Position numbers and translations under genes: made by a program. Source: an uncultured archaeon (GTDB lineage Archaea > Aenigmatarchaeota > Aenigmatarchaeia > QMZP01 > JACQNV01). From it: a stretch of DNA of 64,000 nucleotides. Below, in pieces: positions 2,617 to 61,928 of this stretch. Location of the stretch: NCBI GenBank assembly GCA_964410585.1, contig CAYPFW010000001.1, forward strand, positions 68,781 through 132,780, written 5' to 3'. The notes under the pieces are model-generated. The model saw only the letters and a program-made list of their open reading frames with translations, searched no databases and had not been told where the DNA came from. The stretch's first letter is position 1. Each line of letters opens with the position of its first letter.

Positions 2617-3409
2617 CCAAATACTTCAGTGTAGCCATTATAATTATTACTAGAGCTATTCCTCCTATTAAATGTAGAAGCAAATATGAAGCAACTGTTG
2701 AAATTATCCACACACCTAAGCCAGCCAAGAATAGGCCAACGAGCAACCTCATTAATCCTCTATTCTCCTTTCTCCACTTCTCCAAGTTTTTCAAACCAAC
2801 ACCAGAGTACGCCATGTAGATTATAGCTAACAAAGGTGCAATGAAAACCAGGTTATACAAAAGCAAAAGCGGCATAGCAGTTAAATATGACATACCGCTC
2901 TGTGACATGTAACTAAGGACAGCCAAGTATGGAGCGCCTGTGCAAGGAAGTTCAATTAGAGTGACAATAACTCCAAACATGAACGCAGAGATCAGGCTTC
3001 TGTGCGTTCCGCGCGCCCTTGTTTCAACAGTTGATACAAACCTTTTTGGCATTGCCAAAGAAAATCCGTGACCATACCAAAAGAAATCTTTAATTTCCAA
3101 AAAACCTGCAAGGATAACAAAACTTCCAATTACCATGTAGAACATTTGGCTCACCAAGGCAACTTCTCTCACAGCATTGAAAACTCCTAGAAGTGTGATT
3201 CCACCAAGCAAATAAGTGACATAGACACCGAGTGTATATACAAACCCATTAACCAAGATCCCCTTTCTATTTTTCGATTTAACCAAAACACTCAAAAGAA
3301 GAATCAAAACACCAATCACACACGGATTTATAGAATCAATGAGGGCGCCTCCGAGAACAACAGGGATTGTAGCCTCTGGAGCCGCAACTATAACTTGTTC
3401 CAGTACCAT
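2597..3409 (-). CDS. DsbD/CcdA-superfamily-like polytopic membrane protein
   Basis: Multiple TM helices with membrane-embedded Cys motifs (INPCVIG and ELPCTGAPYLAVLSYM). Confidence 0.45.
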   Translation of the reverse strand: MVLEQVIVAAPEATIPVVLGGALIDSINPCVIGVLILLLSVLVKSKNRKGILVNGFVYTLGVYVTYLLGGITLLGVFNAVREVALVSQMFYMVIGSFVILAGFLEIKDFFWYGHGFSLAMPKRFVSTVETRARGTHRSLISAFMFGVIVTLIELPCTGAPYLAVLSYMSQSGMSYLTAMPLLLLYNLVFIAPLLAIIYMAYSGVGLKNLEKWRKENRGLMRLLVGLFLAGLGVWIISTVASYLLLHLIGGIALVIIIMATLKYLVGYHRD

Positions 3410-3611
3410 ATTTGATATCTATTCTTGCATCTATATATGTTTTGAAAAAATAGAAAATTGGAAAAAATTAACAATATTCACAAACGTTTTTTGAGCTCTT
3501 TTTTGCTGGTTTTTTAGAGCTCTTCTTAGCTTTCTTTTTAGTTGCCATAAAATACGCCTCAAAGCGGCTTTATCCCCCTATATATTATTATTTCACCGAC
3601 TAATAAATCAT

Positions 3612-5507: not shown

Positions 5508-6935
5508 TTAAACTGACCCCAGTTTCTTCTCCAATCCCTTCCTTATTTCAACAGCATCAACTTGTCCTCTTGTTTCTCTCATTACTTGGCCGACCAAAAA
5601 CTCCAAGGATTTTTTCTCGCCGTTTTTGAAATCGGTGACAGCCTTCTTGTTTGCATCCAAAACTTTTTTCAAAACACTTTCCAAATCTATTTCAGTTTTC
5701 CCCAAATTGTATTTTTTGATTATCTCCTTTGCTGATTTTTTCTCCTCAACCATTTTTCTAATTGTCTGCTCAGCATTCCTGTCTGTGATCTTTCCTTTCT
5801 CAAATTCTTCTAGAAGTTCAAAAATCCACTCATCTTTCAAACCAGAATTTTTGTATTTTAAGTTGTTCCAATTCAATGTCTTTTTCAAATCGCCTGCCAA
5901 AAATCCTGCTGCTATATCTGGTTTTAGTTTTTTTGAAATTTTCTCAAAAAGGTCAGCAACGTCTTTTTCAGAAATCAAAGACTCTGCGAGCTTTTGGTGA
6001 ATTTTGTATTGTTTGACAAACCTGTCAAATTTCTCATCTGGAAGTTCTGGGATTTCTTTTTTTATTGAATCTAAAAATTGTTTTGTCAGTTCTATTTTTG
6101 TCAAATCTGGCTCGAAAATATATCCATACTCAGCTTCTTCTTCTTTTCCTCTCATCTCATGTGTTGTCCCAATATCGGGGTTCCATGTCCTTGTTTCCCT
6201 TTTTATCTGCGCGTCTTTTGTTAGCAAATTTTTTTGCCTGATGATTTCAAATTTCAAAGCATCCTCAACTTCCTTTGTCCCTGTGATATTTTTTATTTCA
6301 ACTCTTGTGCCTTCCATACCTTCTGGATTCAAAGAAATGTTTGCATCGGATTTTAGAACAGCTTGTGTAGTTGAATCATACATTCCCATATATTCGAGTA
6401 TCATTGTAAGCTTTGTCAAGTAAAGTCTTGCTTCTTCTGGGCTTTCAAAATCAGGCTCTGTAACTATTTCCACAAGTGGTGTGCCTGCTCTGTTGTAATC
6501 TACTAAAACATATTTTCCGCCAATTCCACCAACGTGTATGACCTGAGCAGGATCTTCCTCTATATGTATTCTTTTTATCCTGATTGTTTTCTTTTTCCCA
6601 TTCAAATCAAAACTAATTTTTCCTTCCAATCCAAGAGGGACTTCGTATTGTGTGATTTGATAGTCTTTTGACATGTCTGGATAAAAATAAGTTTTCCTTG
6701 AGAAGAACATTTCTTTAGGAATTTTGCATCCAAGAGCCAATGCAGCTTTTGTTGCCAACTCAACAACTCTTTTGTTTAATACTGGTTTTGATCCTGGAAA
6801 ACCCAAACAAATTTCGCAAGTTAAAGAGTTTGGTTCAGCATCTTCTTTCAAATTCACAGGATTTTTACAACTGCAAAAAAGTTTGCTCTTCGAGTTCAGT
6901 TGGACATGTGTTTCCAGACCAATTTTTATCTTCAT
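5508..6935 (-). CDS. gatB: aspartyl/glutamyl-tRNA amidotransferase subunit B
   Basis: KIGLETHVQLNSKSKLFCSC N-terminal GatB signature; start moved from ORF-track 6992 to the in-frame ATG at 6935, which is preceded by GGAGGT; the 19-codon extension overlaps GC-rich hairpins. Confidence 0.9.
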   Translation of the reverse strand: MKIKIGLETHVQLNSKSKLFCSCKNPVNLKEDAEPNSLTCEICLGFPGSKPVLNKRVVELATKAALALGCKIPKEMFFSRKTYFYPDMSKDYQITQYEVPLGLEGKISFDLNGKKKTIRIKRIHIEEDPAQVIHVGGIGGKYVLVDYNRAGTPLVEIVTEPDFESPEEARLYLTKLTMILEYMGMYDSTTQAVLKSDANISLNPEGMEGTRVEIKNITGTKEVEDALKFEIIRQKNLLTKDAQIKRETRTWNPDIGTTHEMRGKEEEAEYGYIFEPDLTKIELTKQFLDSIKKEIPELPDEKFDRFVKQYKIHQKLAESLISEKDVADLFEKISKKLKPDIAAGFLAGDLKKTLNWNNLKYKNSGLKDEWIFELLEEFEKGKITDRNAEQTIRKMVEEKKSAKEIIKKYNLGKTEIDLESVLKKVLDANKKAVTDFKNGEKKSLEFLVGQVMRETRGQVDAVEIRKGLEKKLGSV

Positions 6936-6954
6936 CTTAAAACCTCCAGCGGGT

Positions 6955-7011
6955 CGTGTCTCCTGTGAAGGAGACGCGAGACATCTCTGCATCCATTTTT
7001 AGAGATGCAGA
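6955..7011 (-). promoter_or_regulatory. twin GC-rich hairpins in the gatB 5' leader
   Basis: CGTGTCTCC-tgtgaa-GGAGACGCG (9 bp, one G-U) and TCTGCATC-cattttta ga-GATGCAGA (8 bp), immediately 5' of the GGAGGT and ATG at 6935. Confidence 0.5.
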
Positions 7012-7099
7012 TTTTAAGGAATCCAGCAATCACTGTATCTGATTTCATCTAATTAATTGAAAAATCTAAAATATATAAGCAGTTGAGCCAATTATCCAT

Positions 7100-8128
7100 A
7101 TGTACAAACTAATCCCTATTCTGCTTTTAGTCGCGATAGTTATTGTTTCTGGTTGTATTTCTGTTCCCCCTACAGTTCCTCCGACACCCCCAGAAAATTC
7201 ATGCAATTGGGATGCTGGACCATGTGATGCAATTATTGGCAAAGGATATTTTTTCAATTCTGAAACAGGCAACTGTGAGCCCTCTCCGAGAAGTGGATGC
7301 AGCGGTCCCCCATTCCAAGACTTATATGAGTGCCAATCGTCTTGTACAGGAAAAATAGATCCTAAAGACAAATGTTTACCCTTGACTCAATCTGAGTGTG
7401 AATCAACTGTAGGATGTGAACCATACTTTGAAAAAGTTTGCGGTTTTGCTGGAGATTGTAATGATCTATATTATAGCTGCGTGCCTGCAGAAGTAGATCC
7501 AGCAACACTCTGTGATGACGTCAAATGCCCTGAAGGACAAGCATGTTTTGAAGGTGGGTGTGTATCAACTACATCAGAAACAATTGTCTTGAATTTTGAT
7601 GGATATAGAGAGTCTTGTACAGATGAGCCAAAACTGCTTGTTGAAAAGAATGGAAAAAGAACAGAAGTCAAAAACTATCTCTGGGATACAGCTCCGATTT
7701 ATCTAAATGGAGAATATAGAGAATATCCTACAATGTGTGATTATGCTGTGTGTCAAAGTGTTTCAGAATATCCGATTGATGTTGAGCTTGTATCGTATGA
7801 ACAAATTGGCACAAAAGAAGGAGTACCAGAATACACTACATTGCCAATAAAACAGCCTGTTACAGTAGAATTGAATTATTACAAAACAGAAGATGATTGT
7901 AACAAAAAAATAAATACACAGAAATTTTCGCAAACTTATAATTCTAATGATGTCGAGTTATCAGAAGAAAAACTGTGCCAACAAGCAGGCGGCGAGTGGA
8001 AAACTTTCAACAATGGATGTGTAGATTCATGCCGCAGATATGAAATGTGTACACAGGCTCTTACAGATGGCTGCGACTGTGGGCCAGATAAATGCTGGGG
8101 TGGAGAAAGATGTTTAAATAATTCCTAA
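7100..8128 (+). CDS. Cys-rich secreted lipoprotein with Kunitz/BPTI-like domain
   Basis: Signal peptide plus lipobox-like VSGC; residues 35-82 give C-x6-C-x16-C-x7-C-x10-C-x3-C with GPC, YFFN, SGC landmarks of the Kunitz fold. Confidence 0.65.
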   Translation: MYKLIPILLLVAIVIVSGCISVPPTVPPTPPENSCNWDAGPCDAIIGKGYFFNSETGNCEPSPRSGCSGPPFQDLYECQSSCTGKIDPKDKCLPLTQSECESTVGCEPYFEKVCGFAGDCNDLYYSCVPAEVDPATLCDDVKCPEGQACFEGGCVSTTSETIVLNFDGYRESCTDEPKLLVEKNGKRTEVKNYLWDTAPIYLNGEYREYPTMCDYAVCQSVSEYPIDVELVSYEQIGTKEGVPEYTTLPIKQPVTVELNYYKTEDDCNKKINTQKFSQTYNSNDVELSEEKLCQQAGGEWKTFNNGCVDSCRRYEMCTQALTDGCDCGPDKCWGGERCLNNS

Positions 8129-13557: not shown

Positions 13558-13580
13558 GCGGTTTTGGATACGGTAGCCTT

Positions 13581-13889
13581 TTGCAAAAGGCGGGAGCCTT
13601 TAAAAGGCTAGCAGGGGAAGAAGTTGTAATGTTTAATTTCCTGAAAAAGAAAAAAGAAGAAAAGTGTGCCAAGTGTGATAAGGCAGTCCACAAAATAGAA
13701 GGCTGGTATGGAGATACAGACCTCCAGAATGAAAAGCCTTTGAAATCTAATTTTTGCATAGATCATTTGGTTCAAGAAAGTCCTAAAGATTTCAATAAAC
13801 ACATAATCAACTACGCAAAAAATGTCAATGAATACGACGAAAAGATGAGAAAGAAATACGAAAAGAGCAAAACTGAAACACACAACTAG
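13581..13889 (+). CDS. small hypothetical protein with CxxC motif
   Basis: ORF track; CAKCDK and CIDH motifs; start may be the internal MFNF. Confidence 0.35.
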   Translation: MQKAGAFKRLAGEEVVMFNFLKKKKEEKCAKCDKAVHKIEGWYGDTDLQNEKPLKSNFCIDHLVQESPKDFNKHIINYAKNVNEYDEKMRKKYEKSKTETHN

Positions 13890-22792: not shown

Positions 22793-22881
22793 ATTACAAC
22801 TATAGTTCTTTTGGGTACTGTAGACTTTTCTCAGATTTCGGCCTTATAACATAAGGTCCTTTCATTTTAAGAAAAGGCTAG

Positions 22882-24042
22882 CTACTCCTCAAATATTTCT
22901 ACAACCTTATCTTGTTTTTTGTTTATTAAAAGCTCGAAAACGTTCTCATATTTTTGCACATCTAGGCCTTCTTTCTCCAAGTTTTCCCTAAGAAGTTTTT
23001 TTCCAAGTTCTTGGACAGATAATTCTTGTTCCTGTATACTAACTCCACTTAGCTTTTCATCTTGTTTTTCAAAACCGAAATAAAGGAGGCCCTTGTCTCC
23101 ATATTTTATTTTCAACTCATCTGCAAACTTTCCGTCCCTAAGTTTTATTTTCACAAGCGGCGGCTTCAAAAAATTCTCTGAAAAAATTTCTTTTAACTTG
23201 CTTTCAATTTCCTCCTGAGAAGAGTTTTCAAAATTCAAATAAAAAACCTTTCTCTGAGTTTTGAGTTCCTCGAATTTTATTTCATTTGATAAAATACCTT
23301 CAATGCTTCTCTGTATATCGATTTTGTAAACTCTAATAGGTTTTGTTTGACTTGTGATTTGTGTGACAACTAGAGAGCCAGGATGTATGAATGGTTTGTT
23401 GTCGTACATACTTTCTTTCGGTTCATGTATATGACCATTTATGTACAAATCAAAGCCTTTTGGTATTGATTCCTGAGGAAGCAAATGCTCAGCGAAAACA
23501 AAGCCTGAAATTGATTGATGCAACATCAAAATATTATATGTTCCGTCTATTGTTTTTGGATTCCACTGTTTCAAAATATTTTCTGCAAATTGGTCTGGTA
23601 CACCACCCATTCCTTGGACAGCAATTTTCTCCCCATTTTTTTCCAGCACAATTCCGTTACAGTGAAGTTGGACCAAAAAGCCAGCGCGCTCCAAAGCCTC
23701 TACTGGATTTAACAGGCCTTTACTTCTCCTTTCGTGGTTTCCAAAAATTGAAATCACAGGAATCCCATATCCAAATTTTAGATTTTTTGATAAGTCCTTG
23801 TTTATCCCCTCAACAATTTTTGTCTCAGATTTTTTCCCAAAAGCAGACAACAGGTTCTCCATTGTTTTTGTAAAAATTTCTGTGTTTGGTGTCTTGTAAT
23901 CAAAAATATCACCAGCAATCAAAATCAGATCACAGTCTTTGCAAATCTCCATTGCTTCTTCTAAGTTTTCAAAAGCATCTTTTTCCCTTTCTGTACCCTG
24001 ACCAAAACCCAAGTGTATATCTGAGAACAAGCCGATTTTCAT
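22882..24042 (-). CDS. mre11: Mre11/SbcD-family metallophosphoesterase nuclease
   Basis: Phosphoesterase motifs DIHLG, GDIFD, GNHE, LHQ, GHIH in canonical order. Confidence 0.8.
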   Translation of the reverse strand: MKIGLFSDIHLGFGQGTEREKDAFENLEEAMEICKDCDLILIAGDIFDYKTPNTEIFTKTMENLLSAFGKKSETKIVEGINKDLSKNLKFGYGIPVISIFGNHERRSKGLLNPVEALERAGFLVQLHCNGIVLEKNGEKIAVQGMGGVPDQFAENILKQWNPKTIDGTYNILMLHQSISGFVFAEHLLPQESIPKGFDLYINGHIHEPKESMYDNKPFIHPGSLVVTQITSQTKPIRVYKIDIQRSIEGILSNEIKFEELKTQRKVFYLNFENSSQEEIESKLKEIFSENFLKPPLVKIKLRDGKFADELKIKYGDKGLLYFGFEKQDEKLSGVSIQEQELSVQELGKKLLRENLEKEGLDVQKYENVFELLINKKQDKVVEIFEE

Positions 24043-37234: not shown

Positions 37235-37244
37235 GGTTAATCGT

Positions 37245-37323
37245 GGAAGCCGTAATTTTTTCGAGCTTGCAGGCGAAGAAAAAATAGGCTCCGTTTTTGA
37301 TTAACCTTTTGGACTAAAAGGTT
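37245..37323 (+). promoter_or_regulatory. conserved leader element, copy A (upstream of spt4)
   Basis: GGAAGCCGTAATTTTTTCGAGC...GCGAAGAAAAAATAGGCTCCGTTTTTGATTAACCTTTTGGACTAAAAGGTT then ATG; carries compensatory changes relative to copies B-E. Confidence 0.6.
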
Positions 37324-37509
37324 ATGAAAAGCGAAAAGGTTTGTAAAATTTGCAAAAGGTTTGTACAGGGCGATGAGTGCCCAATTTGCAGAGACAAAGC
37401 TTTCTCAAGATCATGGAAAGGCGTCGTCATAGTCAATGATATAAACTCAGAAATTGGCCAAACAGTTGGAGCCAAATCACCTGGGAAATATTGCATCTGG
37501 GTAAGATGA
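37324..37509 (+). CDS. spt4: transcription elongation factor Spt4 / RNAP subunit E''
   Basis: 61 aa zinc ribbon CKICK...CPICR, C-terminal GKYCIWVR. Confidence 0.7.
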   Translation: MKSEKVCKICKRFVQGDECPICRDKAFSRSWKGVVIVNDINSEIGQTVGAKSPGKYCIWVR

Positions 37510-37510
37510 G

Positions 37511-37550
37511 CCCCTTTTCTTAGAAAGAAAAGGCCCTCGGGTTCAAAAGA
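37511..37550 (+). terminator. conserved 3' hairpin element, copy 1 (after spt4)
   Basis: CCTTTTCTT-aga-AAGAAAAGG stem then CCCTCGGGTTCAAAAGAAC. Confidence 0.4.
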
Positions 37551-37591
37551 ACTACTTTACAAACATATAAACTATCAAAACATGATATTGT

Positions 37592-37673
37592 GGAAGGCGT
37601 TTAAAATTTTTTCGAACAGCAGTGAGAAAAAATTTAGCCTCCTGTTTTGGTTAAGCTTTTAGGATAAAAGGTT
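37592..37673 (+). promoter_or_regulatory. conserved leader element, copy B (upstream of rps24e)
   Basis: GGAAGGCGTTTAAAATTTTTTCGAAC...AGAAAAAATTTAGCCTCCTGTTTTGGTTAAGCTTTTAGGATAAAAGGTT then ATG. Confidence 0.6.
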
Positions 37674-37994
37674 ATGAATATAGAAATTGTACACACAAAG
37701 GAAAACCCTTTGCTAGAAAGGCAGGAAGTTGAAGTTTTAGTTAAACATGACTCTGCTTCTACTCCTAAGAGAGCAGATCTTCTAGTCGAATTAGCAAGCA
37801 AACTAAAAACAGAACAAGAACTTCTGATTTTGGAAACAATAAAAACCAACAAAGGTCAGGCTCAAACAATAGGCAGAGTTTTGGTATACCAGAAAAAAGA
37901 ATCTGTTCCAAAAGACAAGCTCGAAAAAATGCAAAACAGGATTTCTGGCAAAAAGAAAGAAGCAGCTGCACCTGCACCAAAGAAAAAAGAATAA
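37674..37994 (+). CDS. rps24e: ribosomal protein S24e
   Basis: MNIEIVHTKENPLLERQEVEVLVKH... S24e N-terminus. Confidence 0.8.
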   Translation: MNIEIVHTKENPLLERQEVEVLVKHDSASTPKRADLLVELASKLKTEQELLILETIKTNKGQAQTIGRVLVYQKKESVPKDKLEKMQNRISGKKKEAAAPAPKKKE

Positions 37995-37995
37995 A

Positions 37996-38124
37996 ATGAC
38001 TAATTCTATAGAATGTATCCAATGCGGAAAGAAAATGATTCACTACCAATGCAAAGATGTCTGCCCATATTGTGGAGCAAAACTAGATTGTTCTGATTTT
38101 GATCAGCCAGGACAAACTAAATAG
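37996..38124 (+). CDS. small zinc-ribbon protein, possibly ribosomal protein S27ae
   Basis: Unlisted 42-aa ORF MTNSIECIQCGKKMIHYQCKDVCPYCGAKLDCSDFDQPGQTK directly after rps24e (conserved archaeal synteny). Confidence 0.45.
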   Translation: MTNSIECIQCGKKMIHYQCKDVCPYCGAKLDCSDFDQPGQTK

Positions 38125-38301
38125 ATTTTCCTAAACAATTAGAGCAAACTTTCCCAGAAAAATGTTTCTGACAAACTAAAGACCCACAGAGAGAGCAGGA
38201 TAAATTTGCCCTCTTTCCACAGACCGAACACAGTCCTGATATCATACATTATTTTTTGTTCTTTTTCTTCCTATATCTTTTGATGTTTCTGTCGCTTGTT
38301 C

Positions 38302-38496
38302 TCATAAAACAGTTCCACCTCTCTTATCGTATTGTTTACCTAAACAGTTTTTGCAAAGTCTCAATGTATGGTGAAAGCAGCTCACGCAAACATTTGCATC
38401 GCACACATTGCACGAATTAAACTTCTCAGTTACCCTATTGCAAGCTGCGCAAAGTTTTGCTTTTTGTGAGCCAAATAACTCTTTGCCTTGGGCCAT
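38302..38496 (-). CDS. small Cys-rich zinc-finger-like protein
   Basis: 64 aa with 8 Cys in C-x2-C spacing. Confidence 0.4.
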   Translation of the reverse strand: MAQGKELFGSQKAKLCAACNRVTEKFNSCNVCDANVCVSCFHHTLRLCKNCLGKQYDKRGGTVL

Positions 38497-38600
38497 ATTA
38501 TTATTAATGTTTTGATATTAATAACTTAGATAAGCTGAGATGGCGGAGTACTTAATTGAGTTTCAGTTTTGTACGTATTGGTAACGCGCACGCCTGGAAA

Positions 38601-38650
38601 GCTAGCCTTTTCTTTTCAAAAAGAAAGGTCTACCGTATCCAAAAGAAAAC
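38601..38650 (+). terminator. conserved 3' hairpin element, copy 2 (inside tRNA locus)
   Basis: GCTAGCC-TTTTCTTTTC-AAAAAGAAAGG-TCTACCGTATCCAAAAGAAAAC. Confidence 0.4.
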
Positions 38651-38663
38651 GATTTACAAACAT

Positions 38664-38745
38664 GGAAGGCGTAAAAATTTTCGAGTTGAGACGAAGAAAA
38701 TTTTAGCCTCCTTTTTGGATTAACCCTTTTCTCAAAAAGGGTTAT
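38664..38745 (+). promoter_or_regulatory. conserved leader element, copy C (upstream of the tRNA 3' segment)
   Basis: GGAAGGCGTAAAAATTTTCGAG...GAAGAAAATTTTAGCCTCCTTTTTGGATTAACCCTTTTCTCAAAAAGGGTTAT. Confidence 0.55.
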
Positions 38746-38800
38746 AGAAAGCGTGTGCCCTTGTGGCTCCAGAGTTCGAATCTCTGTCTCAGCGTGCTAC

Positions 38801-38840
38801 TCTTTCTTTAGAAAAGAAAGAGCACCGTCCAGAAAGAAAC
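38801..38840 (+). terminator. conserved 3' hairpin element, copy 3 (after tRNA 3' end)
   Basis: CTCTTTCTTT-aga-AAAGAAAGAG then CACCGTCCAGAAAGAAAC. Confidence 0.4.
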
Positions 38841-38949
38841 TACAATACAAACACACATCAAACAAAATTGTAATATACCAAAGAGAAACAATATACAATA
38901 AACCAAAGAAGGCTAGAGTACCCAAAAAACTAATTTACAAAAACAATCT

Positions 38950-41010
38950 CTATGATTTTCTGCCTTCCCTTTCCTGCTTTTTTATTGACTCTCCGATCCT
39001 CTTTCTATCTCCTTCATATCCAAGATTTCTTAAAGATGAATGCAAGCCCAAGTCGTAAAGAATTCTAGCTATCTGATATCCTGTTAATCTGTCTTCTGGC
39101 ATCCTAGACAAAACATATTTGCTATCCCCATTGACTAATCTTAGTTTGCTAATCTGGTCCCTTGTGTAAGTATCAGATGCAGAAAATGGAACATATCCAT
39201 TTGTGCTTGGTCTTGTTGCCAGATATCTTCCCAATTCTATTTTTGCTTTCTCAGGATCTGTTGGCAGACCAAGTCCAGATAAAATAGCATCCCTGATTTT
39301 GGGGTTTTGACTTCCAAGCGCAAACTGTGCAAGATCTGTTTTTCTAGCTCTGCCATTATTGATAAGAGGTTTTATTCCGGCCATAGCAGGCAGTGACCTG
39401 TAAAGCCTGTTCATACCATTATGATCTAAGGTTCCACCCAAATCAACAATCTTCGGTTCTGCCGCTTGTTTTACAGCTTCTTCGTGTGCATAGTGAAGTC
39501 CTAAAACATAATCTGAATCATATCCAAAATGGCCCAAAACTTTCTCAGCTCTGTTTAAGTCCATCTTTTCAATAACTCTTTGTTCAAGTAGATCCTTTGG
39601 TACACCGTTTTCGCCTAATGTAATGCCAATTGCAGCTAATTCTTTTCTAAGTGCTCCATCATCTTCCACACCAAAAGCTTGTCTGAGTCTGTCATTTCCA
39701 TATCTGCTTGAATCAACTACTTGAGCCTGCGGAACAGCAACTTTGACAGCCGGAGGAGCAGGCGTTTGTACTACAGGTTTTCCGTCCTTGACTTCTGCTG
39801 GTTTTTGTTCTACAGCCAAAACTTTTGGATCAACTCCTTTTTTCCTAGCAAATTCAATTAGCCATGTATCTGCTTTATCTTGAATATACAACCCTCTGCC
39901 AGTTCTAGGTGTTTTAGAGCCCCTAAATATGGAGTATGCATCATGATATGATAAGTCTGGATCAATTCTTTTCATTCCTTCGTATATATCTGAGAACCTT
40001 ACTGTCTTAGAATCTGAGTCAGAAACCGATTTTGCCGGAGTCTTTGGTTTTGCATATTTATCAATCTCTGCTAAAAATTTCCTTCTCTTTGCATCTGATA
40101 TACCTCTCATTGATGTAACATAATTTTTTGCATGTTCTACAGTCAGATTGCCTGCTTTTACTCCTCTTTTACTTAGAACTTGATATATGCATCCATATTC
40201 TCTTCCTGTTATTTCAGACAAAGCTGTAATTGTTATTCTTTGTGGTTCAATTTTTGGTTCTTCCACTATGGCGCTAGCTACAGCGCTTTTTGGTGATCTA
40301 GGTGTGTATTGATTAAGTCTACCCAATATAGCCTCTCTTTGAGTGGGAGAAACTCTCCTCATGTCATTTAAAACATAATCTCTTGCATCACCTACTGTTA
40401 TTTCCGACGACTCTATTCCTTTGTTTTCAAAAACACCTAAAATCGTATTAATGTTCCTTCCTGTAATTTCAGCTAAATCTCTTGCAGTTATTCTCTGTTT
40501 AGGATCAGTTTTAGGATGCTCTTTTGTTGCCACATGTGCTGTGTCTGCTGGTTTTCTTGGTTCTACAGCTCCAACACTTTCTTCATACAAAAAGTCAACC
40601 AATCCTTCAGAAGAAGAGATTCCTCTGACTCTTTCTGGAGACAAACTAAAAACAACTCTCAAATCTTTTCCCTTAATGACTTTTTCTATTTCCTTCTGTC
40701 CAGAAAAACTTGCAGGCTCATCTGAATATCTTCCATCAACAACTTTGGCTAACAGTGGTTTTTTCGAGTTGAAATCCAAAATCAGATGAGTTGGTCTGTA
40801 TTCAATTCCAACAACTTCACCTTTTTCATTTCCAAATCTCACAGGATATTCAGATACAGAAATTCTAAGAGGTTCTCCACCAACAACAGATGCCCCACTT
40901 GAAAAATTATTTCCAACAGGTTCTCCTGTAATTATGCTATTGCTCAAGCTATCCATGAATGTCGGCGGTGTGCCTTCGGGCTTCGCTTTTACTTCTACTT
41001 TTAGTACCAT
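38950..41010 (-). CDS. hypothetical 686-aa protein with internal ~65-aa repeats
   Basis: Paired segments QRITARDLAEITGRNINTILGVFENKG... and QRITITALSEITGREYGCIYQVLSKRG...; Ala/Arg/Gly-richer than neighbours. Confidence 0.6.
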   Translation of the reverse strand: MVLKVEVKAKPEGTPPTFMDSLSNSIITGEPVGNNFSSGASVVGGEPLRISVSEYPVRFGNEKGEVVGIEYRPTHLILDFNSKKPLLAKVVDGRYSDEPASFSGQKEIEKVIKGKDLRVVFSLSPERVRGISSSEGLVDFLYEESVGAVEPRKPADTAHVATKEHPKTDPKQRITARDLAEITGRNINTILGVFENKGIESSEITVGDARDYVLNDMRRVSPTQREAILGRLNQYTPRSPKSAVASAIVEEPKIEPQRITITALSEITGREYGCIYQVLSKRGVKAGNLTVEHAKNYVTSMRGISDAKRRKFLAEIDKYAKPKTPAKSVSDSDSKTVRFSDIYEGMKRIDPDLSYHDAYSIFRGSKTPRTGRGLYIQDKADTWLIEFARKKGVDPKVLAVEQKPAEVKDGKPVVQTPAPPAVKVAVPQAQVVDSSRYGNDRLRQAFGVEDDGALRKELAAIGITLGENGVPKDLLEQRVIEKMDLNRAEKVLGHFGYDSDYVLGLHYAHEEAVKQAAEPKIVDLGGTLDHNGMNRLYRSLPAMAGIKPLINNGRARKTDLAQFALGSQNPKIRDAILSGLGLPTDPEKAKIELGRYLATRPSTNGYVPFSASDTYTRDQISKLRLVNGDSKYVLSRMPEDRLTGYQIARILYDLGLHSSLRNLGYEGDRKRIGESIKKQEREGRKS

Positions 41011-43721: not shown

Positions 43722-44102
43722 ATGAATGAAATAAAATTTCGTGGACTGGAATTTGAGCAAGTAAAAAAGCTTTCATTAGAAGAATTTAGCAACCTTCTTC
43801 CATCAAGGGACAGAAGAGCTCTTAGAAGAGGTTTCACAGACGCTGAGAAAAAACTTCTAAAAAGCGTCAGAAAAAACCCTAAAAAATTCCACAAAACACA
43901 AGCAAGGGAAATGATAATCATACCAGAATTTGTAGGACAAAGAATAGGAATCCACAACGGCAAAGAATTTGTTGCTGTGGATATAAGACCAGAAATGATT
44001 GGACACAGGCTCGGCGAGTTTGCCCTAACAAGAAAATCAGTCAAGCACTCAGCTCCTGGTTTCGGTGCTACAAAATCATCAAAGTTCGTGCCATTGAAAT
44101 AG
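43722..44102 (+). CDS. rps19: ribosomal protein S19 (uS19)
   Basis: MIGHRLGEFALTRK motif; synteny. Confidence 0.85.
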   Translation: MNEIKFRGLEFEQVKKLSLEEFSNLLPSRDRRALRRGFTDAEKKLLKSVRKNPKKFHKTQAREMIIIPEFVGQRIGIHNGKEFVAVDIRPEMIGHRLGEFALTRKSVKHSAPGFGATKSSKFVPLK

Positions 44103-44149
44103 CTAGCCTTTCTTTTCAGAAAAGAAAGTCTACCGTACCCAAAGAAAAC
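44101..44149 (+). terminator. conserved 3' hairpin element, copy 4 (after rps19)
   Basis: AGCTAGCC-TTTCTTTT-caga-AAAGAAAG-TCTACCGTACCCAAAGAAAAC; overlaps the rps19 stop codon. Confidence 0.45.
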
Positions 44150-44168
44150 GGTATACAGGTTGATAAAT

Positions 44169-49196: not shown

Positions 49197-49244
49197 CCAG
49201 CTAGCCTTCTTTTAGAAAAAGAAGGCTACCGTACCCAAGAAAAC
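49197..49244 (+). terminator. conserved 3' hairpin element, copy 5 (after DUF59 gene)
   Basis: AGCTAGCCTTCTTTT-aga-AAAAGAAGGCTA-CCGTACCCAAGAAAAC; followed by TTTATAAATA TATA-like box before rps17. Confidence 0.45.
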
Positions 49245-49290
49245 TATAATTCACATTTATAAATACCTCATTTCTATATACTAAGATAAT

Positions 49291-49611: not shown

Positions 49612-49716
49612 TAGGAAACTTTTTGCCTTCCTATCAACAAGTTCGTCTGATGTGGAGATGACGAACATTTATAAGATCGGTGATCAATATACCTATTCAA
49701 AAGGTTTAAGCGTCGC

Positions 49717-49798
49717 GGAAGGCGTAAAATTTTTCCGAGCAACAGCGAAGAAAAATTTAGCCTCCTGTTTTGCTTAAGCTTTTGGGACAAAAGCTTAT
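49717..49798 (+). promoter_or_regulatory. conserved leader element, copy D (upstream of rpl14)
   Basis: GGAAGGCGTAAAATTTTTCCGAGC...GCGAAGAAAAATTTAGCCTCCTGTTTTGCTTAAGCTTTTGGGACAAAAGCTTAT then ATG. Confidence 0.6.
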
Positions 49799-50197
49799 AT
49801 GAAGGGACTTTCAGCTAACATCACAAAAGGACTTGGAACAAAATCCATACTCACATGTATAGACAATACAGGTGCAAAAGAATTGGAAATAATATCTGTC
49901 CGAGGATTCAAGGGTAAAAGAAGGACAAAACCAAGAGCAGGCGTCGGTGACCAAGTCACATGCAGAGTGAAAAGGGGAGTTGAAAAAGTCAGGCACGAAA
50001 TGTTCAAAGTTGTGATTGTTAGGCAAACAAAAGAATACAGAAGGTTTGATGGAACAAGAATAAGCTTTGAAGACAATGCAGGTGTAATAATCAATGAAAT
50101 GGGTGAGCCAACAGGAACCCTTTTGAAAGGCCCAATTGCAAAAGAAGCTGTGGAAAGATTCCCAACAGTTGGAAAGTTGGCATCAATAATAATTTGA
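49799..50197 (+). CDS. rpl14: ribosomal protein L14 (uL14)
   Basis: CIDNTGAKELEIISV ... AGVGDQVTCRVK ... GPIAKE motifs. Confidence 0.9.
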   Translation: MKGLSANITKGLGTKSILTCIDNTGAKELEIISVRGFKGKRRTKPRAGVGDQVTCRVKRGVEKVRHEMFKVVIVRQTKEYRRFDGTRISFEDNAGVIINEMGEPTGTLLKGPIAKEAVERFPTVGKLASIII

Positions 50198-52043: not shown

Positions 52044-52083
52044 AATCATGGAGGGTCTAGAAATATAAAAAAAGTTTAAGCGT

Positions 52084-52161
52084 GGAAGGCGTAATTTTTT
52101 GCAAGCAACAGCGAAGCAAAAAATAGCCTCCGTTTTTGCTTAAGCTTTTGACTAAAAGCTT
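52084..52161 (+). promoter_or_regulatory. conserved leader element, copy E (upstream of rps14)
   Basis: GGAAGGCGTAATTTTTTGCAAGC...GCGAAGCAAAAAATAGCCTCCGTTTTTGCTTAAGCTTTTGACTAAAAGCTT then ATG. Confidence 0.6.
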
Positions 52162-52383
52162 ATGAGCTTTGAAAATTCATTGAAACAGGTGAAGAATAAA
52201 CCAGAAAAAATGAAAAGGGTACTTAAATTTAGTTCACCCAAAAAAAGAAAATTTGGAAAAAATTCTCATCCCTGCAGAAGATGTGGTAGGACAAGGGGAG
52301 TAATAATGAAGTATGGCTTGCAATATTGCAGGCAATGTTTCAGAGAGCAAGCACAGAGGCTTGGTTTCAACAAATTTTCCTGA
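52162..52383 (+). CDS. rps14: ribosomal protein S14 (uS14, zinc-binding type)
   Basis: CRRCGRTRGVIMKYGLQYCRQCFRE zinc motif. Confidence 0.8.
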   Translation: MSFENSLKQVKNKPEKMKRVLKFSSPKKRKFGKNSHPCRRCGRTRGVIMKYGLQYCRQCFREQAQRLGFNKFS

Positions 52384-52387
52384 TCCT

Positions 52388-52458
52388 AACCTTTTAGGAA
52401 AAGGTTAAGGTTCACCCAAAGAAACTACAGCTGAGTTCAACAAAGCTACCGTACCCAA
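52388..52458 (+). terminator. conserved 3' hairpin element, copy 6 (after rps14), bipartite
   Basis: AACCTTTT-agg-AAAAGGTT then AAGGTTCACCCAAAGAAAC ... AGCTACCGTACCCAAAAATC. Confidence 0.4.
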
Positions 52459-52524
52459 AAATCAAAAATATACAAATTTGGGAACCCAGAGAAACAGTAT
52501 ACAAAATCAATTGACGAGGAAAAT

Positions 52525-53664: not shown

Positions 53665-56172
53665 ATGGTATTTATAGGTTCTGATAGAGATGTTGACCTA
53701 TACATGCGAGAGGCAAGATCAATACCTCTTCTAACAAAAGAACAGGAGTACAATTTAGCTTGTGTATATAGAGGCGTTGGACCTCTTATAGGATCTAGCA
53801 TTTACCAAAACAAAAATCATCCATTCAGTACCTATAGAAATGGAAAAGCTTATTCTGAAATGTCACCTACAGAAGCAGCTGATTTGATGAGTAGGGGAAA
53901 TAGAAGACTTGTTATTAGTATAGCAAAAAGATATAGAAACCGAGGTTTGGATTTCCTCGATCTTCTTGCAGAAGGTGAAGTTGGCCTTGTTAAAGCTGTG
54001 CAAAAATACGAGCCTCAAAAAGGATTCAAGTTTTCAACATATGCAACTTGGTGGATAAAACAATCGGTAAAAAGAGCACTTGAAAAAACGCGGCAAATTC
54101 ATATACCGATTCATATTTTTGAAATTCTTCCACGTTTTAATGAAGTATATAGAACTCTCCAAAGCGAGTTACAGAGGCCTCCTAGCACAGAAGAGATTGC
54201 ACAAAAAATGGGCTTGAAACCCTCCCAGGTTATTTTGATACAGGATGCAAAGGTAACCAAATCTAGAAAACTTTTAAGTCTAGATAGAATGAAGGGCGAT
54301 GATGAAGATGAAAGCATGTATAAAAGTATAGAGGACAGAACAGCAGATAGACCAGATGATCAAATGAGTCAATTAGACTCGGCAGTTCTGCTCAATACAC
54401 TAATGGACCGCCTAACAGTAAGAGAAAGATATGTTATAGAAAGCCGAAAAGGATTGAACGGAAAAAGTCAAAAAACACTTGAGGAACTTGGATTGGAATT
54501 AGATGTGACAAGGGAAAGAGTAAGACAAATAGAAATCAAGTCAATGGAGAAGCTTAAACAGGCAGCTAAAAGTATTCGTGCTACTAGTGTCATCAAAAGT
54601 AATATTGAAAGCGATAAACAGGTAGCTCAACAAAGCAAAAGACTGAATCGCCCAAATTATCCAGCAGAGAGAACAGAAGTATCTGATTCAAGCTCCTATT
54701 CTGTCTCAGAAATACATGGAATGTGGGGATTTGGATCACATAGTGCAACATCAAGACACATAAGATTAAGCGCTGCAAGAAAGGTGGGTTGGGGAAGATA
54801 CTCAAAAGAAGACATAGATAAGTACACTGCAAGCTTTGGTCTTTTTGGTGAAGAACCGGTTATTAAACAGCAATCTATTTTAGATGAAACAATACCAGTT
54901 GAAGAAAGGGATTGGCTTACATTTGCTGAAATAAAAGAACTGTTTGGCTATCCAAACGCAGAGTCAAACTACAGACACATAAGATTGAGTGGCTCAAGAA
55001 AAGTAGATCACGACAAATACACAAAAGCAGAAATCCTTGCGTACATAGATTGGCACATGAAAGACCTTCTAAATATGCCATTGAAACACGCTGAAACAAT
55101 GACAGATGTGAGACAAGGAATAACTATAGATGAAGTACTTTCTGACCCTCAAATAGCTGATCTTTCTTTTAAAGATATTAGGAAAATTTCAGGGAAATCT
55201 GAAGCAGCTGTATACAATGCAATTAAAGCCAATAATATCCAAAATACAGCAAGAGGCAGATATCCAAAAGAAATTCTTGCAACAATAAGAGAGAGAGATG
55301 AAAGAAGAGTGAAAACCCACACACTACATGACGGCACAAATCACAAAGCAAGAATAGTTTTCGAAAACACAGAAACAGATGACACAACTCCACATGAAAG
55401 AGCAAAAGTGAATAGAAGATCTTATTCTGCGTCAGACGTTTCTAATCTTTTAGATATATCAGTACATGAAGTTCGCCCATTTTCTGTCGCTGTAGGCATA
55501 TCAATATCTGGGCACAGCAAATATTCTAAAAAAGATGTAGATGAATACCTAGCCAAAAGGGAAGAAATACTTGCAATCCCAATGAGAGAAAGAGATGTTT
55601 TGGATATATCTGAAATTTGTGATATGTTTGGTTTTGATACATGGCGATCCACACAAAACCACCTTTATGCAAGCAGGTCTCAGAGGCTCGGAGTTGGCTT
55701 GTTTTCCAAAAGAGAAATTTTAGAATATATAGACATGCACATGCAAGACCTTTTGAACATGCCATTTGTAAAAGCAATGTCACCGGAGACAAAAACTCCT
55801 GAAACGGTTCAACAAATAGAAAGGAAACCTTACAAAAGCCCAGGAATAGAATTAGAATTTAATCCAGGAGAAAATGTACTTCTTCCTAGTTCTGTTAGAG
55901 AATTAACTGGGAGAGATCCTAGCCAACTTCTTAAATATTTGAGATCCCGTGGATTAAGATCAAGAGAATTTAGAATAGGTTGTGTTGCTGAATATTTGGA
56001 TTATATGAGAAAGAAAAAAGAAGTAAAGGAAGAAGCCAAAGACAAATTTTATGGCGGACTTAAAGAGCTTGTCCAAAGGGAAGGCAGAAGACCAGAAAGG
56101 AAGCTTGTAATAAATGTGCAAATAAAAGTTCAGGACATTCACCAAAATTCTGTTGTCGAAGAAGCAGTCTAA
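53665..56172 (+). CDS. sigma-70-family sigma factor domain fused to six tandem HTH-like repeats (835 aa)
   Basis: Region 1.2 [18 protein letters not shown]; region 2 [53 protein letters not shown]; region 4.2 [28 protein letters not shown]; then repeats such as [43 protein letters not shown]. Confidence 0.8.
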
Positions 56173-56588
56173 ATATCCAAAATAACCCTAGCAAACCATC
56201 CTGTTTTTGTTTTTTTCACTTCAAATCGATGCAGAGTGACAGCTTTTACATCAACTTTAAGTTCGTGTTTTTTTGGATCTATTTTTTCCCCTTCCAAAAC
56301 AGCTTTTAGTCTGTTTGGCTTTCCTTCAGAAATAGAAACTTTGATTTTTGAAAACAGAAGTAATTCAGCGTCTTTCAAAAAAATCAACTCTTGGAGAAAA
56401 TCAAAAAACAGCATTTCTATATTGTCTTTTTCCAAAACAATTTCCTTTTTCACTTTTGTTTTTATCCCCTTCAAATCAACTTGCGTCTCTTCTGTAGCCA
56501 GTCCTGCTGCTTCAAAAAGTTCATCTAAACTTTTCCCCTTTGCTTCAAACAAAACATCTGCTGTGTGGTCGAAAAACTTATAACCCAT
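56169..56588 (-). CDS. archease
   Basis: [29 protein letters not shown] archease N-terminal signature. Confidence 0.8.
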
Positions 56589-59364: not shown

Positions 59365-60339
59365 TTAACCCTTAACATTCCCAACGGGAACCAACTTGAC
59401 AACTTTTTGAGAAATATCTTCATCAAGTCTATTTTTCTTTGATTCTATATATTTATCGAGAGCTACCTTTTTGATAAACCAGTTCCTTCCTATCTTGTGT
59501 GCTTCTATTTTTCCCTTTCTTGCAAGCAGGCTAAGATATTCTTGTGAATATGGTGTGCCTTTTGATGCTTGCTCCAGGCTTATAAATTCCGGTCCCTTTT
59601 TGAAAGCATCCAAATAAAAGTCTAGGCTTCTTTCCACATTGCGAGCAATAAAATTTGCAAATGGTTTAATGTCTCCTGAATCTGCTTTTCTAAGTTTGTC
59701 ATAGTATTTATTCCTATCAACTTTTAGTACCATCGTTATTGGATATCCATGTTTCATCAAAAAGAGGTTCATGATCAATCTTGATGTTCTCCCATTACCA
59801 TCTGTGAATGGGTGTATTTCAACTAGTTTATAGTGTATAATTGCCGCGAGTTCTATAACATTCAAATTTTCTGGGTTGTTAGAGACATATTCTATAAACT
59901 CTTTCATTTTGTCAGGGACTTTTTCAAACCTTGGCGGACTTTTTACAGCTCCCAAAATTCTTACATTTACATCTCTGTATCTGCCTGCATATTCATCATC
60001 AATACCTGTCAAAATTATCTTGTGAACTCCCTTTATTGTATCCTCTGTTATTTGAGATGTTTTGTTTACAATGTCTTCCAAAAATTCAAAAGCTTTTTGG
60101 TGGTTTATAGCCTCAAAGTGTTCCCTTAAAGGTTTTCCTTTTATTGTAATGCCTTCCTCTATAACAAGTTTTGTTTCTCTTAATGTAAGCGTGTTGCCCT
60201 CTATAGCATTTGAATTGTATGCCAATTCTATTGCAAACTGTTTTCTCAAATTCTCCAATGCAGATTTCGGCAATGGTCTTAGCGCGTCCAATTCCTTCTT
60301 CTTTTTAACTATTCTTTGGTATAATTCTTGATCTATCAT
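59365..60339 (-). CDS. fic: Fic/DOC-family protein with C-terminal winged-helix domain
   Basis: Fic motif HPFTDGNGRTSR; last 16 codons copy the rtcB C-terminus. Confidence 0.8.
   Translation of the reverse strand: MIDQELYQRIVKKKKELDALRPLPKSALENLRKQFAIELAYNSNAIEGNTLTLRETKLVIEEGITIKGKPLREHFEAINHQKAFEFLEDIVNKTSQITEDTIKGVHKIILTGIDDEYAGRYRDVNVRILGAVKSPPRFEKVPDKMKEFIEYVSNNPENLNVIELAAIIHYKLVEIHPFTDGNGRTSRLIMNLFLMKHGYPITMVLKVDRNKYYDKLRKADSGDIKPFANFIARNVERSLDFYLDAFKKGPEFISLEQASKGTPYSQEYLSLLARKGKIEAHKIGRNWFIKKVALDKYIESKKNRLDEDISQKVVKLVPVGNVKG
59368..59415. repeat. 48-bp direct repeat, copy 1 (3' end of fic)
   Basis: ACCCTTAACATTCCCAACGGGAACCAACTTGACAACTTTTTGAGAAAT; 45/48 identical to copy 2. Confidence 0.85.
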
Positions 60340-60443: not shown

Positions 60444-61928
60444 CTAACCCTTAACATTCCCAATTGGAACCAACTTGACAACTTTCTGAGAAATGCCAGC
60501 GTTGTGTGCTGATTCGATGACTTCGTCAATATCCTTGTACGCGCCACCAGCTTCTTCAGCTAAACCAGAGAACGAAACCGTTTTAACTAGAATTCCTCTC
60601 TTCTCCATATCTTTTTGTAGTTGCTCGCCTCTCCACTGCCTTTTCGCTGCGTTTCTTGACATTGTCCTTCCAGAACCGTGGCATGTTGATCCAAAAGTCT
60701 CTTCTTCTGCTTTTTTTGTGCCGACCAAGAGATATGAGCCAGTTTCCATTGAGCCACCGATGATCACAGGTTGTCCATCATCCCTGTAAATTTTAGGAAC
60801 CTCCTCCCTTCCAGGACCAAGGCTTCTGGTTGCGCCTTTTCTATGTACGATGACTTTTTTCTTTTTTCCATCAACTACATATTCTTCAATTTTAGCGGTA
60901 TTGTGCGCCACATCATACACTTGTTTCATTCCTAAACTTTCCGGTGACTGTTTGAAAACATCTGAGAATACCTCTCTGATTCTGTGCAAAATAACTTGCC
61001 TATTTGCAAAGCTCATGTTTATTCCAGTTTGCATTGCTTTGAAATAATCTTGTCCTTCAGGTGATTGGAAAGGAGCACAAGCAAGCTCCCTGTCCAAAAT
61101 TTTTATTTTGTATTTAGATTCCATCACAGACAAAAATTTGGTCAAATAATCTGTTGCAACTTGGTGGCCATATCCTCTTGAACCACAATGGAACATCAAA
61201 ACAATTTGATCTGGGAAAATCCCCCATTTTTTTGCAAGTTCTTTGTTGATTATGTTTTCTGGCAGAACTCTTTGGATTTCTAAATAGTGGTTTCCAGAAC
61301 CTAAAGTTCCTATCTGATCTTTACCTCTTTGGATAGCTTTGTCAGAAACTTTGGAAACATCTGCTGCTTTCATCCTTCCATTTTCTTCTGTCCTTTCCAA
61401 ATCCTCTTCCCAACCATATCCTTGCTTCACACACCACTCTGCACCAAGTTCAACAACTTCTTTGAATTGTTGTGCATTTAGTTTCACAAAACCAGAAGAT
61501 CCAACACCTGCAGGAACTCTATCGTATAGTTTATTTACTAAGTTTCTTAGTTGAGGTTGGACATCTTTGAAAGTGAGATTTGTCAACACAAGACGCATGC
61601 CGCAGTTAATATCAAACCCTATTCCACCTGGAGAAATCACACCTTCTTCTAAATCAAACGCAGCGACACCGCCAATCGGAAAACCGTATCCCCAGTGTCC
61701 ATCTGGCATACAGTATGCAAATTTCTGAATTCCGGGCAAGTTTGCGACATTGGTTATTTGGTCGTAGACTCCTGGGTCCATTTCGTTGACCAATTTCTTT
61801 GACGCGACAATTCTTGCCGGCACATTCATGCCAGTTTTGTGGGTTTTAGGGATTTCCCAGATGTATGGTGTGATCTGCTTGATTTCTTTTGGCTTCTCTA
61901 TTCTGATCTGAGATCCTTCTTCGTTCAT
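60444..61928 (-). CDS. rtcB: tRNA-splicing ligase RtcB
   Basis: GGSMETGSYLLVGT and GSTCHGSGR motifs, 494 aa, C-terminus KLVPIGNVKG. Confidence 0.9.
   Translation of the reverse strand: MNEEGSQIRIEKPKEIKQITPYIWEIPKTHKTGMNVPARIVASKKLVNEMDPGVYDQITNVANLPGIQKFAYCMPDGHWGYGFPIGGVAAFDLEEGVISPGGIGFDINCGMRLVLTNLTFKDVQPQLRNLVNKLYDRVPAGVGSSGFVKLNAQQFKEVVELGAEWCVKQGYGWEEDLERTEENGRMKAADVSKVSDKAIQRGKDQIGTLGSGNHYLEIQRVLPENIINKELAKKWGIFPDQIVLMFHCGSRGYGHQVATDYLTKFLSVMESKYKIKILDRELACAPFQSPEGQDYFKAMQTGINMSFANRQVILHRIREVFSDVFKQSPESLGMKQVYDVAHNTAKIEEYVVDGKKKKVIVHRKGATRSLGPGREEVPKIYRDDGQPVIIGGSMETGSYLLVGTKKAEEETFGSTCHGSGRTMSRNAAKRQWRGEQLQKDMEKRGILVKTVSFSGLAEEAGGAYKDIDEVIESAHNAGISQKVVKLVPIGNVKG
60447..60494. repeat. 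48-bp direct repeat, copy 2 (3' end of rtcB)
   Basis: ACCCTTAACATTCCCAATTGGAACCAACTTGACAACTTTCTGAGAAAT. Confidence 0.85.

Follow-up and report, generated by a model that had tools for sequence, protein, structure and literature searches.

The origins of introns in archaeal tRNA genes, and of split tRNAs, have been debated for two decades, mostly from end states. Archaeal tRNA genes that carry several introns with non-canonical bulge-helix-bulge (BHB) motifs were reportedly described by Sugahara in 2007 and 2008 and by Kaneta in 2018. Such genes are well known in Thermoproteales, and are reported to be frequent in DPANN archaea and to occur also in Asgard (PMC5829648). Here we describe a gene of this kind in a 64,000-nucleotide (nt) stretch of contig CAYPFW010000001.1 from an uncultured archaeon, which we refer to as the window. 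Positions 38534-38794 (+) of the window are an authentic tRNA-Ser(GGA) gene with three exons and two introns. In common with the multi-intron archaeal tRNA genes, it is interrupted both at 37/38 and in the D-loop, has apparently relaxed BHB motifs, and is missed by standard tRNA finders; it differs from them in that its second intron is built from repeat families that also fill intergenic spacers.

Surveys from 2011 and 2014 put archaeal tRNA introns at 11-129 nt with a median of ∼15 nt (PMC3218864, PMC4090602), a range that intron 2 of the present gene exceeds at 150 nt. [quoted passage not shown] The A. pernix locus has a high-scoring transcription factor B recognition element (BRE) and TATA box giving a leader of 20-25 nt, a canonical hBHBh' motif followed by a 14-bp G/C-rich stem, and halves that were detected by northern analysis (PMC3218864). 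At tRNA-Ser(GGA) the clamp is absent, the internal promoter is at most a candidate, and the BHB motifs appear relaxed.

In Thermoproteales, intron sequences common to different tRNA genes have been ascribed to "intron transposition", the mechanism of which is unknown. Unlike the sequences involved there, the repeat that we find in intron 2 is a covarying two-hairpin element of ∼90 nt, which is found in both orientations and, away from tRNA genes, directly in front of start codons; furthermore, orthologues with and without the intron are available here. The tRNA-Thr(GGU) gene of Caldiarchaeum subterraneum differs between close genomes in its intron and split states, which has been attributed to a 1.8-kb mobile element encoding a recombinase (Sugahara 2012, PMC3293823). 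The gene in the window likewise has differing interruption states in relatives, although its inserts are only 30-150 nt long and non-coding. Bacterial repeats of the repetitive extragenic palindromic (REP)/bacterial interspersed mosaic element (BIME) and miniature inverted-repeat transposable element (MITE) types are short, palindromic and highly repeated, lie between the genes of operons, and vary in presence among close relatives. Judged from this general description, the families described below are similar in being structured, dispersed and variably present in relatives, and are dissimilar in that the two-hairpin element keeps a constant position 0-2 nt before a start codon and also lies inside tRNA introns. 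In the literature that we searched we found no description of a short covarying non-coding repeat that supplies the content of tRNA introns, whichever way it is oriented, and is also a constant element before start codons. Because the inserted DNA consists of repeats that also occur outside tRNA genes, one can name the donor, the target and the product, and the process is opened to testing.

The tRNA-Ser(GGA) gene

A first-pass annotation of the window, made from the sequence without database searches, had pointed to an atypical tRNA locus whose identity and authenticity it left in doubt. The pieces that it described are all present: a T-arm, CAGAG-TTCGAAT-CTCTG, at 38770-38786 (+), which a scan showed to be the only credible T-arm-like site in the window; the acceptor 3' strand TCTCAGC at 38787-38793, followed by G at 38794 as the discriminator; the acceptor strand's exact partner, GCTGAGA, at 38534-38540; and an 8-bp helix, including one G-U, between GCGCACGC (38586-38593) and GCGTGTGC (38751-38758), the strands of which are separated by 157 nt. 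The inner 5 bp of this helix turn out to be the anticodon stem (27-31/39-43, CACGC/GCGUG), extended by three more pairs. A second insertion, 30 nt long (38549-38578), interrupts the D-loop, which is why the D arm had been unreadable. When both insertions (38550-38579 and 38600-38749) were removed in silico, ARAGORN, one of the programs that had been proposed as a check on the locus, called an 81-nt tRNA-Ser(gga), and when only the first was removed, ARAGORN with its -i option returned the same tRNA-Ser(gga) with a 150-nt intron. The spliced product forms a perfect cloverleaf of type II, in which the acceptor stem has 7 bp and the D, anticodon and T arms are present; it has U8, A14, G18 G19, U33, the T-loop TTCGAAT, a long variable arm and G73, and its anticodon loop reads CUGGAAA. 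Taken with the near-identical orthologue described below, the call on the spliced product puts the observation far beyond chance and settles the identity as tRNA-Ser(GGA).

Exon 1 (38534-38548, +) comprises the acceptor strand GCTGAGA, U8 and G9, the D-stem 5' strand GCG(G), and A14 and G15. Exon 2 (38579-38599, +) begins with U16 G18 G19 U A A, the D-stem 3' strand CGC and G26, and continues with the anticodon-stem 5' strand CACGC, C32 and U33, the anticodon GGA and A37. The remainder, exon 3 (38750-38794, +), runs from A38 and the anticodon-stem 3' strand GCGTG through the long variable arm to the T-arm, the acceptor 3' strand and G73; CCA is not encoded at the 3' end. Upstream, the AT-rich region 38497-38524 (+) contains TATA-like strings at ∼-31 and ∼-15 from the tRNA start and is a candidate promoter. 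The tRNA genes of relatives have TATA-like boxes ∼25-40 nt upstream, and we note that promoter prediction is unreliable in this AT-rich lineage.

Neither ARAGORN with default settings nor Rfam, whether at its gathering threshold or with the cutoff relaxed to E ≤ 1, called a tRNA anywhere in the 64-kb window, and ARAGORN called none on the genomic sequence when it was allowed one intron. A lowered ARAGORN threshold gave only Phe and Arg calls, which we judged to be spurious. Such a miss by standard models is to be expected when two introns interrupt a gene, and it illustrates why the tRNA sets of DPANN archaea seem incomplete. An assembly artefact is excluded by an independent Logan contig (L001, sample ERR4904391), which is identical to the window base for base over 37283-38824; two shorter contigs (ERR4904390 and ERR4904392) agree with the window in the region upstream of the tRNA.

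Orthologous genes in relatives

Prolyl-tRNA synthetase (ProRS) homology places the window in Aenigmatarchaeota (DPANN), with 59-64% amino acid (aa) identity to the nearest species representatives. Syntenic metagenome contigs, designated here by L numbers, were reached through homologues of S24e with 76-84% identity. One of these, L111, has the gene order ProRS, RpoE', Spt4, S24e, a 140-aa open reading frame (ORF), a small zinc-ribbon ORF, a Zn-finger ORF on the opposite strand, and a tRNA gene; the Zn-finger ORF beside the tRNA is conserved between the window and L111. The tRNA gene at this same syntenic site (L111 5394-5474) is an uninterrupted tRNA-Ser(gga) that default ARAGORN calls. An alignment with the orthologous locus had been suggested as a check, and the spliced product from the window is identical to the L111 gene at 79 of 81 positions. 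Both differences fall in a single compensatory acceptor pair, 7:66, where the window has A:U and L111 has G:C. A single 99-nt intron interrupts the gene in L114-L116; it lies on the D-loop's 3' side, and the sites 15/16 and 37/38 are uninterrupted there.

In these sequences, then, one orthologous gene is seen in three intron states, with none, with one, and with two at other sites. Alignment to the uninterrupted orthologue shows both interruptions of the window gene as insertions, and the three states argue that its two introns are lineage-specific gains; as read from the compared genes, introns appear to have been gained recently and independently in relatives. The tRNA-Asp gene provides a parallel, being intron-less in L106 and interrupted in L089. 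Directly downstream of the tRNA gene in the window is an ORF of 686 aa (38950-41010, -), and relatives have other sequence in its place. Among 5.8 billion proteins it has no homologue except itself, and no Pfam domain is on record for it. Neither this ORF nor the Zn-finger ORF, which has a single homologue, led to further orthologues of the locus.

Introns and splicing signals

Intron 1 is a 30-nt insertion in the D-loop at 15/16 (38549-38578 or, equivalently, 38550-38579, +) and is absent from the L111 and L114 orthologues. Its boundary is ambiguous by 1 nt, with a U on either side, and the BHB register favors 38548|38549. No sequence like intron 1 was found elsewhere in the window or in the sequences of relatives that we examined. 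Intron 2 occupies 38600-38749 (+) at the canonical position 37/38, as called by ARAGORN -i, and is likewise absent from L111 and L114. The ∼160 nt of intervening sequence in the first-pass annotation is thus a real long insertion, with an intron length of 150 nt. A 6-nt direct repeat, GAAAGC (38597-38602 and 38747-38752), flanks intron 2 and is present as a single copy in the uninterrupted orthologue. Because of this repeat, the register of intron 2 is ambiguous over seven positions by sequence alone and the bulges at its two splice sites are identical. The repeat may be a target-site duplication or a microhomology; the counterpart at intron 1 is only 1 nt.

For the splicing signals we used the BHB motif definition of PMC4090602, with which the register in the window agrees. 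The central helix at intron 1, GCGG:ACGU, consists of G10:U, C11:G and G12:C plus a G13.A apposition (three pairs out of four), flanked by 3-nt bulges AG|U and AU|U; its inner helix comprises 2 bp (AC/GU) plus 6 bp (AAUUGA/UCAGUU), and the outer helix is weak. At intron 2 the central helix CUGG:AUAG consists of C32:G, U33:A and G34:U plus G35.A (again three of four), the bulges are AA|A twice, and the outer helix is the anticodon helix of 5-8 bp. By our calculation the chance of at least three of four pairs in both helices is ∼0.02, position disregarded. Both motifs are compatible with a relaxed BHB that has 3-nt bulges and a four-position central helix.

Seven introns listed from relatives all have 3-nt bulges and a fully paired (4/4) central helix; for one of them, L089 tRNA-Asp, the boundaries first drawn gave 1/4, and 4/4 was reached only after re-registration by hand at 37/38. 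In three D-loop introns of relatives, the 5' bulge is AG|U and the central helix is formed with the D-stem 5' strand. Intron 1 of the window shares both their site and this 5' bulge. We also considered a C/D box sRNA as the content of intron 2. Neither TGATGA nor CTGA, the C/D boxes, occurs in 38600-38749, and no Rfam sRNA family matches at E ≤ 1, which rules out this candidate.

Repeat families in intron 2

Comparison with the rest of the window and with relatives shows that intron 2 is made up of two repeats, each a single copy from a different family dispersed in this Aenigmatarchaeota lineage. This analysis bears out the earlier view that the intervening region joins one hairpin element and one leader element. 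The 3' part of the intron is a two-hairpin element (38661-38750, +; family D1) in sense orientation to the tRNA, with hairpin 1 at 38664-38711, a T5 run at 38712-38716, and hairpin 2 at 38721-38744. The 5' part is a gene-end hairpin element (38600-38662, +; families D2/D3) that consists of AGCTAGCC, a hairpin at 38603-38632, then CTACCGTATCCAAAAGAAAAC and the TATA-like string GATTTACAAACA.

The window contains five copies of the ∼90-nt two-hairpin element on the + strand (37242-37330, 37589-37680, 38661-38750, 49714-49803 and 52081-52168), and the four outside the tRNA gene end 0-2 nt before the ATG of spt4, rps24e, rpl14 and rps14. A pattern scan of metagenome contigs gave 25 further loci, and a covariance model (R1) found the five window copies plus 40 in the loci of relatives (45 in total), scoring the intron 2 copy at 90.6 bits. 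Carriers among relatives include L086-L111, L114 and L007, the last being the only carrier among the more distant Aenigmatarchaeota genomes. In an alignment of 28 sequences, 97.2% of cells are paired, vs 83.7% after shuffling and at most 58% with slid partners; compensatory changes occur at 9 of 22 pairs, and one closing-stem pair is G:C in 19 copies, C:G in 9 and broken in none. The element has no match in Rfam, E ≤ 1 included. Its strong covariation and its position, 0-2 nt ahead of many start codons, make it a candidate for a new structured element, which could act as a mobile cassette of 5' untranslated region and promoter or as a regulatory leader.

Several other identities were considered for this element and set aside. 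A viral origin found no matches in IMG/VR. Hairpin 1 has a conserved tandem GA without the 3-nt bulge of a kink-turn. The AT-rich descending arm of hairpin 1 disagrees with the GC-rich copies in L007 and L092; it is the pairing and not the sequence that these maintain, and the stem is therefore no conserved TATA box. The Spt4-S24e spacer is colinear with intron 2, yet its leader copy is not among the twelve family members closest to that of the intron, and we rejected it as the direct donor. The nearest member is in L107 (77% identical).

The layout of the two-hairpin element, with a U-run after hairpin 1 and hairpin 2 abutting the ATG, was also seen in relatives, where the element precedes many genes, including L37ae-like, RpoA'-like and EF-1beta-like genes as read from their N-termini. 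A TTAAKCGT box lies upstream of the copies at 37245, 49717 and 52084 and of those in L087, L093 and L104. It is complementary to a GMTTAA just after hairpin 1, and the K and M positions agree by eye in six of six cases (AAGC/GCTT or AATC/GATT). This complementarity suggests a pairing that would compete with hairpin 2 and so a possible switch. In L088 two of the elements stand back to back, inverted.

The general plan of the gene-end element is AGCTAGCC, a hairpin with U-rich and A-rich strands, CTACCGTAYCCAAAGAAAAC and a TATA-like string, and its motif has 7 matches against 0.38 expected. Copies lie on the + strand at 37510-37565, 38600-38662, 38800-38845, 44103-44160, 49197-49250 and 52380-52470, and on the - strand at 22806-22890 and 13562-13620. 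Outside intron 2, they come after stop codons, such as those of S19 and S14 and the one ahead of S17, or after the tRNA 3' end, and they occur also within conserved ribosomal operons (S19-L22). The first 44 nt of intron 2 are 91% identical to the S19-L22 spacer at 44101-44143. The copy in the 3' flank of the tRNA gene (38800-38845, +; family D2) has its hairpin at 38800-38822, followed by CACCGTCCAGAAAGAAAC and a TATA-like string. In the orthologues, too, a hairpin of this sort, CCTTTT...AAAAGG, follows the tRNA.

Some further observations concern this family. An A-rich box is centered ∼28 nt before the ATG of L22 and of L111 spt4. In L111 a hairpin element at 3385-3500 is inserted just after the spt4 start. 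On both sides of it stand 24 nt of the spt4 5' end, duplicated as ATGAAAGCTGAAAAAGTTTGTCGC ... ATGAAAGCTGAAAAGGTTTG, which leaves a gene fragment upstream and an intact spt4 downstream. L088 (1468 nt) contains a tRNA-like 3' end, ACAGG-TTCAAAT ... CCTGT-CCTCGGCG-CCA, with a T-loop that is apparently interrupted by ∼190 nt made up of two inverted gene-end hairpin elements; its 5' part was not found, and we do not use it as evidence.

The two-hairpin element varies in presence among orthologous spacers and behaves as an insertion. Both the RpoE'/Spt4 and the Spt4/S24e spacer contain it in the window, whereas those of L114 (6 nt and 37 nt) are element-free, and L111 has two in tandem before S24e; in all, presence or absence differs at three orthologous sites among the window, L111 and L114. 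From this distribution we infer REP/MITE-like behavior of both families. By eye, no inverted repeats span the two-hairpin element; a transposase was not sought.

The two-hairpin element is also found in six tRNA introns of relatives, 96-140 nt long: in tRNA-Gly(CCC) at 37/38 in L086 and L090, in the D-loop at 15/16 in L094, in two genes of L110, and in tRNA-Ser of L114. In all six, each of which is flanked by a canonical BHB motif, it is antisense to the tRNA, an orientation in which it cannot supply a 3' half with a sense promoter or leader. Both kinds of piece that had been seen in the intervening sequence, terminator-like and leader-like, are real members of repeat families. L110 has a cluster of four tRNA genes at ∼6150-8000 (-), all with long introns of ∼60-140 nt; the two-hairpin element is in the D-loop of two of them, and a tRNA-Leu(UAG) begins 3 nt after the preceding tRNA.

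Interpretation

We think it probable that the tRNA-Ser(GGA) gene is functional and that its two recently gained introns are removed by ordinary cis-splicing. One precursor of ∼261 nt would be transcribed from a promoter upstream of 38534, and the splicing endonuclease would cleave two relaxed BHB motifs. At 15/16 the central helix would form between the D-stem 5' strand and the 3' terminus of intron 1, and at 37/38 between nucleotides 32-35 and the last intron nucleotides. The three exons would then be joined by RtcB with archease. The repeat elements would be passengers, structured and insertion-prone and at home also in intergenic spacers, which the tRNA gene may tolerate because they are spliced out. 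Both ligation proteins are encoded in the window, as had been noted at first sight and as Pfam confirms: archease, the RtcB cofactor, at 56169-56588 (-; PF01951, E = 1.5e-42), and the RtcB tRNA-splicing ligase at 60444-61928 (-; PF01139, E = 8.4e-174). Of the two options in the first-pass annotation, an adjacent split tRNA and a tRNA carrying a very long, non-canonical intron, the very long intron stands, at the canonical position 37/38; the non-canonical intron is the 30-nt one in the D-loop, which that annotation had not seen.

A number of observations weigh against cis-splicing. Pfam scans of 30 window ORFs revealed no gene for a splicing endonuclease. Both central helices pair at only three of four positions, vs all four in the relatives, and intron 2 lacks an adjacent inner helix, with hairpin 2 abutting the central helix instead. 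A fold constrained to both BHB motifs lies 6.6 kcal/mol above the minimum free energy structure, in which the intron forms three independent hairpins. Intron 2 also contains a T5 run and several T4 runs, which are possible terminators for the archaeal polymerase. The two-hairpin element of intron 2 is sense to the tRNA, the sole such case among seven element-bearing tRNA introns, and it is preceded by a gene-end element and BRE/TATA-like sequence, which together make up the complete layout of an intergenic spacer.

The last of these points speaks at the same time for an adjacent split tRNA or a dual-mode intermediate, as in A. pernix tRNA-Asp, where a 121-nt "intron" turned out to be two adjacent transcripts (PMC3218864). 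In this scheme the hairpin element would end a 5' transcript with exons 1 and 2, the promoter of the cassette would start a transcript that contains part of the leader and exon 3, and the two RNAs, held together by the acceptor stem, the anticodon stem and a helix of trailer and leader, would be trans-spliced by the endonuclease and RtcB. Intron 2 is indeed colinear with a full spacer, a gene-end element and then a gene-start element, both sense, with BRE/TATA-like strings after the hairpin, and the hairpin element also follows the tRNA's own 3' end. If the 3' transcript starts inside hairpin 2, a 9-bp trailer/leader helix, UAGCCUUUU:AAAAGGGUUA, can form by the splice sites. This helix is the best intermolecular one, however, and is AU/GU-rich and 3 nt off the bulge, in place of a G/C-rich clamp of 12-14 bp; it is also a generic outcome because the two hairpins are alike. 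The promoter could not be scored, as a weight matrix built from ten upstream regions of relatives' tRNA genes was positionally inconsistent and scored nothing; it was blank both in the intron and upstream of the tRNA gene itself, and so was discarded. The TATA-like string lies ∼10 nt before the closing stem, vs ∼20-45 nt at the S24e and L14 copies, and, as noted, the hairpin 1 stem is not a conserved TATA box. Moreover, elements of both kinds occupy spacers inside conserved operons (RpoE'-Spt4, S19-L22), in which strong termination would do harm, and relatives evidently cis-splice long introns that bear the element. With neither the G/C-rich clamp by a canonical BHB nor a well-placed promoter demonstrable, the split-tRNA reading of the first-pass annotation is weakened, and we regard it as unlikely. 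It is similarly doubtful that the 150-nt insert is a mobile gene-boundary cassette, with a terminator-like hairpin, a promoter and a structured leader, that came to lie in the anticodon loop and enables separate transcription and trans-splicing. If this were true, the locus and its orthologues would be a caught intermediate, in which dispersed repeats first make archaeal tRNA introns and then split genes.

The imperfect pairing of both central helices could also mean that the gene is a decaying pseudogene, a copy inactivated by two repeat or foreign insertions while another gene serves in its place; the failure of default ARAGORN and Rfam to recognize it, and the freedom with which the repeat families insert in this lineage, would fit such a history. 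Small DPANN genomes rarely retain duplicate tRNA genes, though, and relatives have one tRNA-Ser(GGA) at the syntenic site. The exons are intact and match the orthologue at all positions except the compensatory change, which keeps the acceptor stem paired, and the insertions fall exactly at the positions and registers of the BHB introns of relatives. We therefore consider decay very improbable, and retain cis-splicing of two gained introns as the preferred reading.

A side observation concerns the ligase gene itself. The last 16 codons of RtcB (ISQKVVKLVPIGNVKG*) are repeated with 94% DNA identity at the end of an adjacent ORF with Fic/DOC and HTH_17 domains (59365-60339), the two copies lying at 59366-59415 and 60445-60494 (-). 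This looks like an element that integrated at the rtcB 3' end and duplicated its target.

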